Shown piece after piece: positions 16,704-21,314 of a DNA stretch of 47,526 bases; the stretch's first letter is position 1; each line of letters begins with the position of its first letter. The notes under the pieces are model-generated. The model saw only the letters and a list, made by a program, of their open reading frames with translations. It was not told where the DNA came from and searched no databases. The translations under genes were made by a program, and so were the position numbers. This DNA is from Opitutales bacterium (GTDB taxonomy: Bacteria > Verrucomicrobiota > Verrucomicrobiia > Opitutales > JABSRG01): assembly GCA_049599475.1 (NCBI GenBank), contig JBMYOQ010000026.1, forward strand, positions 1 to 47,526. Reading direction: 5' to 3'.

Positions 16704-18170
16704 ATGCGCCTCAATATCTTCGGCCTCTCGCTGGACGCCGGTAAAGGTTCTACGTACCTAAAACGAACGTCGTGTATGCTGCTATGCGTGCCGAGCGTAC
16801 TTACGGCAACGACCGTCACGACGAACATTGTCAGCGTCTTCGGAGCGGATGCTCCGTATGCATCCACGTTTGACTCAATGACCGACGGTTCTTTCGAACC
16901 CCAGAAGGAATCCACATGGTATACCAATGGTGATGCCGTCATATCGGCCGGTCGGCTCGAACTTAATGGCCCCGCCACGATGATAAACTTGACCTCGGAG
17001 AACACCTCTCTCTGGAGCGAGGTCAACATAACGCCAAATCCATTTCCACTCGGAGAGACACCCGAACTGGCTCCCGAAGCAGTTGCCGCCTTTTTCTTCA
17101 ACACGGAAGGCGATTTCCAAGTCCTCGATGGGAGCACATGGATCACCGCAACCACTGTTCCGGTCGGGCAGATCAATACGGAACACCGGATCACCACAGT
17201 CGTCGACTATGAAGCGCGCACTTATAGCGTCTGGCTCAATGGCGTCCGCGTTGCCCAAAACGCAGCATTTACGCAGCCGGGCAATGCGACACCACTCCAA
17301 ATCCGCTTTGATGGCGACGGGACAGTGTCTTCCCTGTTCCTATCCACAGGCGAACCGCAGGCCCTCGACAATGACGGAGACGGCATGATTAACAGCTGGG
17401 AAATCGCTCAGGGCATCGACCCTGAAGTGTCCACAGGAAACGACGGCTCAAGCGGAAACCCAGACGGAGACAGCTTTACCAACCTGGAAGAATATCAGTA
17501 TGACCTCACCGCCCTTTCCTACGAAACTCGAGTCGACGGCGGCGCAGATGCTGTATTAACTTTCGAAACCGAAGAAGGCTGGGTGACCGGCGATCTAAAC
17601 AACCAATTCGGCTGGCTAGCCAACAGCTCTGCGATCTTACAAGAACCTTCGATCTTCACCACTCAAGGTGATACTGGAGTCGAAGTCCTTCCTGAATTCA
17701 GCTACGCAGATGCGGCATTCGCAAATATCGATTCTTCACAGCAGAACATTCGAATGACCCTAGACCTTGCGCCCATGGCCTACAGCAACGATGCAGAGGT
17801 CCCCTTACCGGATACAGCTTCTCGCTTGGCCTTCTTCATTCGCGAAGATGCCAGCATCCACGCAACAGACGGCACATCGGGCACCGATCCTCTATGGAGC
17901 AATACGGGAACCATTCCACAGATTGATGTTGCGAGCTGGAATCGCGTCGAACTCCATATCGACTACCTCACTGAGAAATATTCTCTGCGCATCATCAACC
18001 CGGCGGATCCAACAGACTTTTCAGCAACCTATGGCCCGTTCAGTCTATTGCCCGGTTCTGAAACCTCAGTGGATCATGTCATGCAATTAACGATCAGCAA
18101 CGAAGCCGTGTCCGGAGAGACTTACTTCGACAATGTTCGCGTCGCTGCCACAGCAGATTCGGTAAACTAA
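16704..18170 (+). CDS. Acidic extracellular protein: two concanavalin/LamG-like beta domains around DxDGD calcium-binding motifs
   Basis: VDYEARTYSVWLNG and IDYLTEKYSLRI repeats, DNDGDGMINSWE, NPDGDSFTNLEEY and a terminal YFDNVRV. Start codon uncertain. Confidence 0.7.
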   Translation: MRLNIFGLSLDAGKGSTYLKRTSCMLLCVPSVLTATTVTTNIVSVFGADAPYASTFDSMTDGSFEPQKESTWYTNGDAVISAGRLELNGPATMINLTSENTSLWSEVNITPNPFPLGETPELAPEAVAAFFFNTEGDFQVLDGSTWITATTVPVGQINTEHRITTVVDYEARTYSVWLNGVRVAQNAAFTQPGNATPLQIRFDGDGTVSSLFLSTGEPQALDNDGDGMINSWEIAQGIDPEVSTGNDGSSGNPDGDSFTNLEEYQYDLTALSYETRVDGGADAVLTFETEEGWVTGDLNNQFGWLANSSAILQEPSIFTTQGDTGVEVLPEFSYADAAFANIDSSQQNIRMTLDLAPMAYSNDAEVPLPDTASRLAFFIREDASIHATDGTSGTDPLWSNTGTIPQIDVASWNRVELHIDYLTEKYSLRIINPADPTDFSATYGPFSLLPGSETSVDHVMQLTISNEAVSGETYFDNVRVAATADSVN

Positions 18171-18209: not shown

Positions 18210-18380
18210 ATGAAAAAGTTATCCTACCTATTCCTCGCAAGCGTGACCATCATCACTCCGCTTGCTGCCGCTGAACCCGCAAACGGAACCCTTATCCAAA
18301 TAAGCTCCGTATCCATTTTTTCATTAATCGTCTCACTTTACTGCACGCGTAAAGCCGCAAAAGGCGAAATCCAGTCATAA
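18210..18380 (+). CDS. Small 56-aa membrane/secreted protein (below the ORF-track cutoff)
   Basis: MKKLSYLFLASVTIITPLAAA|EPANGTLIQISSVSIFSLIVSLYCTRKAAKGEIQS*: a signal peptide, a second hydrophobic helix and a basic tail, followed by a terminator. Confidence 0.7.
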   Translation: MKKLSYLFLASVTIITPLAAAEPANGTLIQISSVSIFSLIVSLYCTRKAAKGEIQS

Positions 18381-18435
18381 AGCGCACTGGTTATAAAATT
18401 TCTCGAATTGGGTTTCGAGAATCCCCCTCAAAAAT

Positions 18436-18464
18436 GGGCCGTCCATTCCAGGACGGCCCTTTTT
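18436..18464 (+). terminator. Rho-independent terminator
   Basis: GGGCCGTCC-ATTCCA-GGACGGCCC-TTTTT. Confidence 0.88.
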
Positions 18465-18537
18465 GATATATGCATACCTCAGTAAATAGAACTTGATTTG
18501 AGATGCTAGCGATTCAAAGAAAATGGGATATTAAGGG

Positions 18538-18641
18538 CTCATGCCCGCTACGCTCAAGGCCCCAAGACCCAAAGCTTATGCTCGGTAATACAAATTTAGA
18601 TCCGCTAGGTATTCCTTGGGGTCTTCGGGTCTTGGCGTGAG
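18538..18641. repeat. Hairpin repeat R1
   Basis: Left arm CTCATGCC..AAGGCCCCAAGACCCAAAG and right arm CCTTGGGGTCTTCGGGTCTTGGCGTGAG are imperfect reverse complements; homologous to R2 and R3. Confidence 0.92.
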
Positions 18642-18684
18642 TCCAACCGAAATCCGGATAAGACTAGCGCGTATAACATTCACT

Positions 18685-19095
18685 ATGGATGAAAATACAA
18701 TCGGCAAAGAAGTAGTGGATGCAGCCATAAAGACTCACCAGTCATTGGGACCCGGTTTACTTGAATCCGTTTATGAAGTCGTTCTAGCTAGAGAATTGCA
18801 ACGGCGCGGCATGACAATTGAAAGACAGCAACCGGTTTCAATCGAGTTTGATGGCGTCATTTTCGATGAAGGTTTCCGCGCCGACATCATAGTAAACAAG
18901 AAAGTTATTCTAGAGCTAAAATCAGTCGAACAATTGAGCAAGGTGCACCACAAACAGCTCTTTATATACTTAAAGTTGAAGAAATTAAAGTTGGGATTTC
19001 TCCTAAACTTTGGTGCTCCGCTTATGAAGGACGGAATCAAAAGAATGGTCAATGGACTCGATGACGAAAAACTCGGCGTCTTTGGGCCTCAATAA
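18685..19095 (+). CDS. GxxExxY protein (PD-(D/E)XK nuclease superfamily)
   Basis: Signature LGPGLLESVYE, plus FRADIIV, ILELKSV, HHKQLFIYL and GFLLNF. 136 aa from ATG 18685. Confidence 0.93.
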   Translation: MDENTIGKEVVDAAIKTHQSLGPGLLESVYEVVLARELQRRGMTIERQQPVSIEFDGVIFDEGFRADIIVNKKVILELKSVEQLSKVHHKQLFIYLKLKKLKLGFLLNFGAPLMKDGIKRMVNGLDDEKLGVFGPQ

Positions 19096-19118
19096 AAAAT
19101 GCGTAACTGGATTAAGGA

Positions 19119-19205
19119 CTCACGCACGCAGCGCTCAAGACCCAAAGCTCATGCTCAGCAATACAAGCTTAGATTCAATAGGTATTTCTTGGGGTCTTGG
19201 CGTGA
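19119..19205. repeat. Hairpin repeat R2
   Basis: CTCACGCACGCAGCGCTCAAGACCCAAAG ... TTCTTGGGGTCTTGGCGTGA; lacks one 8-nt unit in each arm relative to R1. Confidence 0.92.
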
Positions 19206-19248
19206 ATCCATTCAAAATCCGGATAAGCCGAGGAGTATAACATTCAAT

Positions 19249-19352
19249 ATGGATTAAAATGAAGGCGGCAAAGAAGCAGTAGTTGCAGCAATAAGGCTAA
19301 TCAAATTTTGGGAGTCGATGACCAAAAACTCAGACTTTTTGAAACTCAACAA
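19249..19352 (+). pseudogene. Internally deleted, nonsense-mutated copy of the GxxExxY gene
   Basis: ATGGATTAAAAT..GGCAAAGAAGCAGTAGTTGCAGCAATA aligns to the gene's 5' end (GAA->TAA at codon 3). It is joined at GGA to GTCGATGACCAAAAACTC, which aligns to the gene's 3' end. Confidence 0.88.
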
Positions 19353-19375
19353 CAAATACTTAACTGGATAAAGGG

Positions 19376-19470
19376 CTCACGCCCGCTACGCTCAAGGCCC
19401 GAAGACCCAAAGCTTATGCTCAGCAATACAAGATTAGATTCAATAGGTATCTCTTGGGGTCTTGGCGTGA
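19376..19470. repeat. Hairpin repeat R3
   Basis: CTCACGCCCGCTACGCTCAAGGCCCGAAGACCCAAAG ... CTCTTGGGGTCTTGGCGTGA. Confidence 0.92.
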
Positions 19471-19491
19471 AGACTTGCCCGAATTACGCAT

Positions 19492-19524
19492 AAAAAAAGC
19501 CGCCCAATTCAGGACGGCTTTTTT
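19492..19524. terminator. Bidirectional terminator downstream of aspS
   Basis: A7-GCCGCCC-AATTCA-GGACGGC-T6. Confidence 0.85.
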
Positions 19525-19532
19525 AGGTAAAT

Positions 19533-21314
19533 CTACTCGTTGACGAGCGTTTTTATATTCAGCTCACGTAGTTGCTTAGGTGCTACACGTGATGGGCTTT
19601 GCGTCATCAAATCTTCAGCCTTTTGCGTCTTCGGGAAGGCGATGACATCGCGGATCGATGTGCGCCCTGCGAGGAGTGTGACCAAGCGGTCGAATCCAAA
19701 TGCGATACCTCCGTGAGGGGGCGCACCGTATTCAAAAGCTTCGAGCATGTAACCGAAACGGCTTTCGACGACTTCTGGATCTAGACCCAGGACATCCAAG
19801 AAAACCTTCTTCTGCAACTCGGGCTGGTGGATACGAATTGAGCCGCCGCCGAGTTCTGTGCCGTTGAGCACGAGGTCGTAGTGTTGGCCACGAACGGCTT
19901 TGGGGTCTGTATCGAGTTTTTCGATATCTTCCGGAACCGGCGATGTAAACGGGTGGTGAGCCGACACGTAGCGCCCTGCCTCTTCATCGAAAATCATAAG
20001 CGGAAACTCAATACACCAGAGGAATTTCCAGTCGTCCCATTTCAACTCAAGCTTTTCGCGACTTACGAGTAATTGAGCAGCTAAGAGACGCACACGTCCG
20101 AGGATGGTGCAGGCTTGTTCCCAATCTGAAGCCGCAAAGAAAACGACATCACCAGTCTCGACATTAAGCTTTTCCTTGAGAGCCGCTTGCTCTTCCTCTG
20201 AGAGGAATTTTAGGATCGGGCTCTTCCAGCCATTTTCATTGGCCTTAATGAAAGCGAGGCCCTTTGCGCCAAGCGACTTTGCGGCATCTTCGAGACCCTT
20301 CAGTTCGCCCTGAGTGATGTCAGCAAGACCCTTCATGTTGATGGCCTTAATCGCGCCGCCCTTATCGACGACACTCTTGAATACCTTAAATTCGGAATTC
20401 GCAAAGACATCGCCGAGGTCTTGGAGCTCGAAGCCAAAACGCATATCAGGCTTGTCCACGCCGAAGCGGTTCATCGCGTCGTGGTAAGACATGCGAAGGA
20501 ATGGAGTCTGCAGCTCCACGCCCAAAGTCTCTTTCCAGATATGCGCCATGAGGCCTTCAATCAGCGCATACATGTCTTCCCGATCAAAGAAGGAGACTTC
20601 CATATCGATTTGGGTAAACTCTGGCTGACGATCGGAGCGCAAGTCTTCGTCGCGGAAACACTTCGCCATCTGGAAGTATTTCTCAACACCCGCTACCATA
20701 AGCATTTGTTTAAACTGCTGAGGCGATTGTGGGAGTGCGAAAAACTCACCTGGCTTCGTGCGGCTAGGAACAAGATATTCGCGCGCCCCTTCCGGTGTAG
20801 ACTTAAAGAGCATGGGCGTCTCGATCTCGAGGAAGCCTTCGGAGTCGAGATACTTACGCACGGCCTGAGCTGCCTTACTACGGAGCTGCAACAGCTTGAG
20901 GTTGCTCGAGCGGCGAAGATCGAGGTAGCGGTACTTCAGGCGCAGGTCTTCGTTTACCAAATCACCCTTCTCATCCATCGGGAACGGAGGGGTCTTGGAT
21001 GCATTCAAGATCTCGGCAACTTCGACAGCGATTTCGATAGCCCCTGTAGCCATCTTATCATTGGTGGTTTCGGCGCTACGCTCAACTACCGTGCCGGATA
21101 CATGAAGAACGCTCTCGCTCTTGAGCTGCGGGATGACTTCGGCTACCTCTGAATTATTCGGATCGAGCACCAGTTGAGTCACGCCCTCGCGGTCGCGGAG
21201 ATCAACAAACTGGATGCCGCCATGGTCGCGCACGGAGTCAATCCAGCCAGCCAGAGAGACTGATTCTCCGGCATTGTCCTTGCGCAGCTCTGCGCAGTGA
21301 TGTGTTTTTTTCAT
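19533..21314 (-). CDS. aspS: Aspartate--tRNA ligase (possibly non-discriminating; RDHGG carries His)
   Basis: OB-fold RDHGG..DLRDREG, RLKYRYLDLR, STPEGAREY, LPQSPQQFKQ, motif 2 FRDEDLRSDRQPEFTQID, GAD insert and motif 3 PPHGGIAFGFDR. Confidence 0.97.
   Translation of the reverse strand: MKKTHHCAELRKDNAGESVSLAGWIDSVRDHGGIQFVDLRDREGVTQLVLDPNNSEVAEVIPQLKSESVLHVSGTVVERSAETTNDKMATGAIEIAVEVAEILNASKTPPFPMDEKGDLVNEDLRLKYRYLDLRRSSNLKLLQLRSKAAQAVRKYLDSEGFLEIETPMLFKSTPEGAREYLVPSRTKPGEFFALPQSPQQFKQMLMVAGVEKYFQMAKCFRDEDLRSDRQPEFTQIDMEVSFFDREDMYALIEGLMAHIWKETLGVELQTPFLRMSYHDAMNRFGVDKPDMRFGFELQDLGDVFANSEFKVFKSVVDKGGAIKAINMKGLADITQGELKGLEDAAKSLGAKGLAFIKANENGWKSPILKFLSEEEQAALKEKLNVETGDVVFFAASDWEQACTILGRVRLLAAQLLVSREKLELKWDDWKFLWCIEFPLMIFDEEAGRYVSAHHPFTSPVPEDIEKLDTDPKAVRGQHYDLVLNGTELGGGSIRIHQPELQKKVFLDVLGLDPEVVESRFGYMLEAFEYGAPPHGGIAFGFDRLVTLLAGRTSIRDVIAFPKTQKAEDLMTQSPSRVAPKQLRELNIKTLVNE

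Follow-up and report, generated by a model that had tools for sequence, protein, structure and literature searches.

GxxExxY nuclease genes and dispersed palindromic repeats: a likely selfish system seen in a tandem array of an Opitutales bacterium

A GxxExxY gene of an Opitutales bacterium (GenBank assembly GCA_049599475.1, contig JBMYOQ010000026.1, positions 1 to 47,526; this whole stretch of 47,526 nucleotides is termed ‘the window’ in what follows) is accompanied by hairpins whose arms recur throughout the genome. The reading that we favour, at a probability of roughly 55%, is that a hairpin-plus-gene unit, belonging to a dispersed family of palindromic repeats, is arrayed in tandem at the locus, and that the GxxExxY protein recognises and cuts its own type of arm, letting arm-bounded units spread and amplify. 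Gene and hairpins likely form a selfish repeat-plus-enzyme system, since the arms are dispersed without the gene in their own genome and bracket most relatives of the gene. The partnership of nuclease and repeat appears real and is well supported; by analogy it would be of the REPIN/RAYT or Ssn kind, with a third enzyme fold. Cutting or moving of the arms would fall to the GxxExxY enzyme.

The array runs from hairpin R1 through an intact GxxExxY gene, R2 and an internally deleted gene copy to R3 (Table 1), the order given in a preliminary description of the window, and the hairpin starts bear out the unit lengths of 581 and 257 bp reported there. The three hairpins are homologous, with a mean column identity of 74%. 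As DNA, R1 and R2 fold well beyond their shuffles (z-scores -3.5/-4.0 and -3.1/-4.3) and R3 marginally (-1.6/-1.5). The second gene copy had been called decayed; it is not intact, but it has suffered an internal deletion rather than general decay, with some 46 nt retained at its 5′ end and some 42 nt at its 3′ end. Contigs from a second study are identical to the window over 18338-18783, 19061-19424 and 19427-20357 (18784-19060 lies outside their coverage), and because they show no differences across the covered stretches the array is unlikely to be an assembly artefact. No transposase or integrase was found among the 41 open reading frames (ORFs) of at least 120 aa in the window, in agreement with the earlier view of the locus; a Pfam scan left 13 of 35 window ORFs without a match at E 1e-8. 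A promoter scan at the locus stayed at chance level (2 hits against 2.6).

Table 1. Features of the array and its immediate flanks (positions in the window)
Feature	Position	Strand	Remarks
Terminator-like hairpin, left of array	18431..18464		73% like the 19492 copy; 3 pattern matches genome-wide
R1 left arm	18539..18574	+	TCATGC head, 11-nt insert, 8-bp words ending AAG
GCGNAGC DNA mini-hairpin motif	18547..18553	-	Within R1 left-arm insert; present in R3, mutated in R2; folding in vivo putative
R1 loop	18575..18614		Common only to local copies
R1 right arm	18615..18641	-	Without insert
Intact GxxExxY gene	18685..19095	+	136 aa, predicted PD-(D/E)XK fold
Degenerate inward-pointing arm	19072..19106	-	Overlaps last codons of the GxxExxY gene
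R2 hairpin	19120..19205		Each arm one 8-bp word shorter than in R1
Internally deleted gene copy	19249..19352	+	Stop at codon 3; about 310 nt missing
R3 hairpin	19377..19470
Terminator-like hairpin, downstream of aspS	19492..19525		Sole terminator present at the empty site in G001

The spacers between hairpin and gene, previously described as conserved, are so among the three local copies, but what had been taken for the downstream spacer belongs to a fourth, degenerate arm, of which it forms the tail. Beyond the R1-R3 copies neither spacers nor loops are conserved, as expected under local duplication; among 10 arm pairs of the genome only R1 and R3 share a loop (R2 was not parsed), which likewise argues that R1-R3 arose by local duplication. 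Two similar terminators bracket the insert at a place where a genome of the same genus, G001, has one; a terminator was possibly duplicated upon insertion, although the similarity of the two is no higher than 73%. Upstream of the array, a 488-aa ORF (16704-18170) and a 56-aa ORF (18210-18380) have no Pfam or NCBIfam match, and both are conserved in G001.

Each hairpin consists of two inverted arms built of 8-base words. In an arm, a TCACGC head is followed, with or without an insert, by 8-bp words that end in AAG. Arm copies number 55 in the bacterium’s own genome against 2, 3 and 0 in shuffles, and a related pattern gives 60 matches, one of which falls inside a long ORF, in a genome of which long ORFs make up 81%; the possibility that the hairpin occurs only at this locus, raised in the preliminary description, is thereby set aside. 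Most arms form inward-pointing pairs about 90-260 bp apart, between housekeeping genes and mostly without a GxxExxY gene. No target-site duplication was seen by eye at 10 of these pairs. A tandem array devoid of GxxExxY genes lies on one own contig (C115; L025:1829-2613), where five arms face the same way at a spacing of about 192 bp. On another (C2; L001:2100-6000), several arm types form an island, intermingled with heptamer repeats, a PIN/FitA toxin-antitoxin pair and nucleotidyltransferase-like genes.

Read on the bottom strand, the insert is GCGNAGC, in which N varies freely; PMC13037366 gives GCGNAGC as a DNA mini-hairpin motif. Of 61 metagenome pairs, 58 carry it on a single arm, from a scan that required the insert on one arm. 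Asymmetry and motif together hint at polarity and at single-stranded DNA. The insert position holds varied small modules: GCGNAGC, a longer GAGCG..AGCGG hairpin, a hairpin with a GAAA loop or an A/T run (L160 of genome G006, L081, L029 and 19087-19096 of the window).

Arms accompany GxxExxY genes far beyond this genome. We collected 115 distinct homologs, 110 with enough flanking sequence, and scored inverted matches between the two flanks (threshold, at least 26). Such arms flank 85 of the 110, against 4 of 400 control ORFs from the own genome and 14 of 110 in the best of 20 shuffles, in a sample that leans toward relatives of the query and one order; the enrichment of palindromes at GxxExxY flanks, proposed earlier as a check, is therefore strong. 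A larger set gives 108 of 145 (5 of 150 were dropped). About three quarters of homologs thus have arms, across many phyla, and both loci found on viral contigs have arm-like flanks. Arm-gene-arm is the more fitting description of the basic unit, from which gene-less arm pairs would derive. In the own genome, the tgt-phoU interval on C99 holds a 64% identical paralog with an inward arm immediately on either side. The closest homologs have their start codon directly against the left arm and their 3′ end overlapped by the right arm; of the 101 close homologs that possess a tail (19 of 120 have none), 84 read on through the right arm. The degenerate arm in Table 1 is a version of this right arm that the window gene has retained.

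The type of arm goes with the type of protein. All five paralogs of the own genome have inward arms, of four types, three of which also occur there as gene-less pairs (the type on C17 was not counted). Paralogs within a genome are divergent, and most arm types have one or two of them. The more alike two proteins are, the more alike are their arms (rho 0.215, a value reached by 0 of 999 permutations) in the 94 of 145 genes that have a clear inverted match close to the gene. Sharing of arm 6-mers is 0.229 between proteins of at least 60% identity from different genomes (233 pairs) and 0.047 between same-genome paralogs below 50% identity (35 pairs), against a background of 0.063. With simple, model-free labels for arm type, a single 67-row clade of the protein tree (SH-aLRT 96) takes in 61 of the 62 CRCNRAG-type arms, and AT, AA and GGAA types fall mostly in the other, in a tree with few columns and many open forks; arm labels change 8 times, a raw count that has no shuffled-label baseline. 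From these sequence comparisons, arm type appears to follow protein clade and not host. Overall the covariation of arm and protein is modest, and physical linkage alone could produce it.

Among 41 related genomes, at least two arm matches occur in 11 of 23 with GxxExxY and 0 of 18 without; the Fisher p of 0.0008 is overstated by kinship and genome size, as kin genomes are non-independent and those without GxxExxY tend to be smaller. Four genomes (G002, G005, G022, G029) have arms without a homolog above 55% identity. In a further one, G030, 21 arm matches are scattered among ordinary genes with no GxxExxY match to the window protein at E 1e-25, nor was a GxxExxY gene found near arms in the 15 stretches examined (L419-L433); these arms are an orphan repeat population or have another partner. 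Such arms without a cognate gene fit an explanation that we consider unlikely, in which the gene is cargo: arms would be moved by another enzyme or by host recombination, GxxExxY would be one of several captured small accessory genes, and the window would show a plain tandem duplication that decayed. The same explanation would account for arms adjoining toxin-antitoxin and nucleotidyltransferase genes or enclosing, at one metagenome locus (L352), a gene that we take to be HicB-like, and ordinary recombination between repeats can yield tandem arrays. It accords poorly with the high proportion of armed homologs in many phyla and with arm types that track protein clades, and another recognisable gene is enclosed in only 1 of 84 metagenome arm matches.

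REP-associated tyrosine transposases were rejected as the arm partner: within about 1 kb of the 12 Y1/RAYT-like genes of the own genome there is no TCACGC-type arm and no triple word, which also counts against the cargo explanation. The hairpins had been likened to integron attC sites, a suggestion that we drop, as no matching AAC/GTT core pair exists around R1-R3 (18301-19600, both strands). The window contains no IntI; integrase-less integron clusters exist, and the absence of IntI is by itself non-excluding. Elsewhere in the own genome, contig C120 (L245) encodes an integron integrase that scores above the TIGR02249 threshold and is accompanied by an attI-like site and one or more cassettes, a point in favour of cargo. 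A second such point comes from genome G006, where another GxxExxY clade has 11 copies that share one G|TT starting point (10 GTT, 1 GAT) and follow unrelated DNA; because they share this integron-type start, an integrase and not the nuclease likely spread them. These 11 copies occupy unrelated sites in G006, each as an arm-gene-arm unit in an integron-type cassette, mostly internally deleted and with truncated attC-like tails (L250, L254, L258, L261, L264, L267, L269, L271, L273, L275 and L277; listed alongside are L251, L255 and L259 of G004). Across the family, the integron core signature is not enriched (7 of 145 genes against 4.0 in shuffles), contrary to what cargo status would suggest.

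The hairpins were also considered as RNA. The preliminary description had offered a structured RNA partner, as in type III toxin-antitoxin or RNA-guided nuclease systems; we rejected this candidate, as Rfam matches are at terminator level and all below the gathering score, and tests of covariation and of G.U pairs lend no support. The broader proposal that arms act in RNA, either pairing around the gene like an intervening sequence or serving as the RNA partner of a toxin or guided nuclease, seems to us very improbable. R1 and R2 do fold well as RNA (z -4.0 and -2.5), the position of arms against the start codon and over the 3′ end in close homologs would suit it, and word position 3 (C/G) covaries across the stem (paired in 64 of 71 hairpins against 57.3 expected), partly through kinship. 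Word position 5, however, pairs in 26 of 71 hairpins against 29.7 expected, a result that goes against the covariation looked for, and mismatches of the G.U/G.T type number 72 on the sense strand against 98 on the other (bottom) strand (p 0.055, 87 loci). Loops are unrelated between sites, and a PADLOC search gave faint matches (E 0.008). Since position 5 is unpaired and the sense strand has no G.U excess, information seems to lie mostly in the sequence of the repeated words, which suits protein binding better than an RNA fold.

Turnover of the units is visible between genomes. G001 has the same neighbours as the array, separated by about 130 bp with a single terminator, against about 1150 bp with two terminators in the window; this is the empty site downstream of aspS for which the preliminary description proposed a search in close relatives. 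No arm match was found in G001, a genome 86% complete. Arms are also absent from two further orthologous sites there; of other sites one (C) is non-syntenic and three are absent or only partly present, and intergenic DNA in G001 is too diverged to map insertion ends. Close to the 3′ part of aspS, no GxxExxY gene occurs in any of 19 relatives. Presence of the gene is patchy (23 of 41 relatives), with many broken copies.

In metagenomes we surveyed 80 loci of at least 127 matches. Gene-less pairs make up 47 of their 84 distinct arm matches; 15 are hairpins next to a GxxExxY gene (7 loci, of which about 5 are independent), 13 have no partner, 7 are truncated and 2 are long pairs. One locus (L292) is an exact tandem of hairpin and gene, and two others (L361 and L294) are one locus with 5 and 2 upstream hairpins. 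Hairpin plus nuclease had been proposed as a unit that is copied or mobilised; repeated units do recur at these loci, whereas mobilisation by the nuclease itself would be a further step. Long direct repeats lie on both sides of 25 of 145 genes, so the layout seen in the window recurs as a minority form. In two contig sets the array showed no excision joint, contigs being prone to drop rare forms.

This look of ongoing turnover, with patchy presence, broken copies, absence within the genus and changes of copy number in arrays, bears on another explanation, quite improbable in our judgement: a domesticated SsnA-like site-specific nuclease that cuts single-stranded DNA bearing its repeat, modulates recombination or DNA uptake and has lost any role in mobility. 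The layout matches the NTS-ssnA-NTS arrangement of PMC11893778, and a single-domain enzyme under strong purifying selection, with divergent paralogs mostly numbering one or two per arm type, is what it would lead one to expect; turnover is not.

The protein itself was assigned to the GxxExxY family with scores well above curated cut-offs, 135.8 bits against TIGR04256 (cut-off 35) and 135.2 against PF13366 (cut-off 22). The family is very large, with at least 8000 matches (8000 of 8000 scored candidates). The residues E27, E37, D67, E77, K79, Q91 and Y95 are conserved and intact in the window protein; among 61 sequences E77, K79 and Y95 are invariant and E37, D67 and Q91 are kept in at least 90%. 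The QxxxY of the window protein is presumably the RecB-family motif. A structure model (pLDDT 92) finds Cas4 SSO0001 as its best Foldseek match (E 6.4e-4), and a wide structure search gives the same protein a VIA Z of 7.8 (rmsd 4.4, 101 aligned), with several PD-(D/E)XK folds tied at Z 7-8. By predicted fold and residues, this is a Cas4/RecB-like PD-(D/E)XK nuclease with intact catalytic residues; the catalytic D and ExK residues are in place, and the preliminary assignment to the PD-(D/E)XK fold stands. A sequence search of solved structures gave no match under E 0.5, and PHROGs, like PADLOC, gave faint matches. Comparison with 11 homologs gives pN 0.14-0.25 and pS 0.84-0.97, with synonymous sites saturated, values that point to strong purifying selection on the gene.

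Under the favoured reading of a nuclease paired with its own arms, the enzyme would read the repeated words sequence-specifically, probably on single-stranded or extruded DNA, a target suggested by the bottom-strand mini-hairpin motif and by the Cas4 nucleases among the nearest solved folds. It would nick beside the words, and host repair or replication would then copy the unit. Gene-less arm pairs would be non-autonomous copies moved in trans, and the window array would be a local duplication whose second gene was internally deleted. More tentatively, GxxExxY proteins might be the mobilising enzymes of widespread elements of about 500 bp, each a minimal Cas4/RecB-like nuclease that recognises tandem 8-10-bp words in folded single-stranded DNA and moves units bounded by arms or raises their number. 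We know of no PD-(D/E)XK enzyme that does strand transfer alone. Were this mobilising reading true, it would mean a chemistry of transposition different from that of the DDE, HUH, serine and tyrosine enzymes, and a natural library of clade-specific enzyme-site pairs.

PMC3424549 lists PF13366 as of unknown function, and the literature that we searched, with most subscription papers and bioRxiv supplements out of reach, contained no description of arm flanks at GxxExxY, PF13366 or TIGR04256 genes. The family now gains a specific candidate substrate, its cognate arm. If the pairing is true, it would follow RAYT/REP and Ssn/SRM as the third independent one of small nuclease and dispersed palindrome, and would account for a common class of repeats between genes; a 136-aa enzyme with clade-specific sites could be a useful reagent.

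Several known systems share features with the one described here. As in insertion sequences and their MITE derivatives, a single gene lies within terminal inverted arms (L021, some 530 bp in the tgt-phoU interval) and internally deleted and gene-less copies exist, but no known transposase family is involved and no target-site duplication is evident. Some relatives in G004, G006 and G021 lie in integron cassettes with GTT...AAC cores and attC-like tails; their attC lies outside the arms, however, and R1-R3 have no such cores. The best structural match is to Cas4, of the Cas4/RecB-family nucleases, but compared with Cas4 as presented in PMC5704561, the 136-aa protein has no CRISPR context and, containing no cysteine, no four-cysteine Fe-S module.

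REPIN/RAYT systems pair REP doublets with a REP-associated tyrosine transposase and (PMC3337134) share with the arms their extragenic inverted doublets, hairpins of about 90 bp with variable spacers, tandem arrays, and the coexistence in a genome of several repeat groups, every one of them linked to its own divergent paralog of the enzyme. The REP/RAYT analogy drawn in the preliminary description was the right one, for dispersed extragenic inverted doublets, tandem arrays and paralog-specific arm types all recur here. The enzyme there is HUH/Y1 and here PD-(D/E)XK (PF13366); an arm here is a run of 8-10-bp words and there a single short palindrome; and here the gene is usually inside the doublet, with no excision joint in contigs. 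Ssn/SRM systems (PMC11893778) combine the GIY-YIG single-stranded DNA nuclease SsnA with NTS hairpins, likewise a small single-domain nuclease whose flanking hairpin repeats are also dispersed, and 71% of them have at least one SRM, against about 75% with arms here by another measure. Fold and repeat grammar differ, the window protein has no GIY-YIG (cd10448) domain, and cleavage, shown for SsnA, is here only predicted. By these analogies the GxxExxY system would work like REPIN/RAYT and Ssn/SRM and, because its enzyme family differs, would belong to neither.
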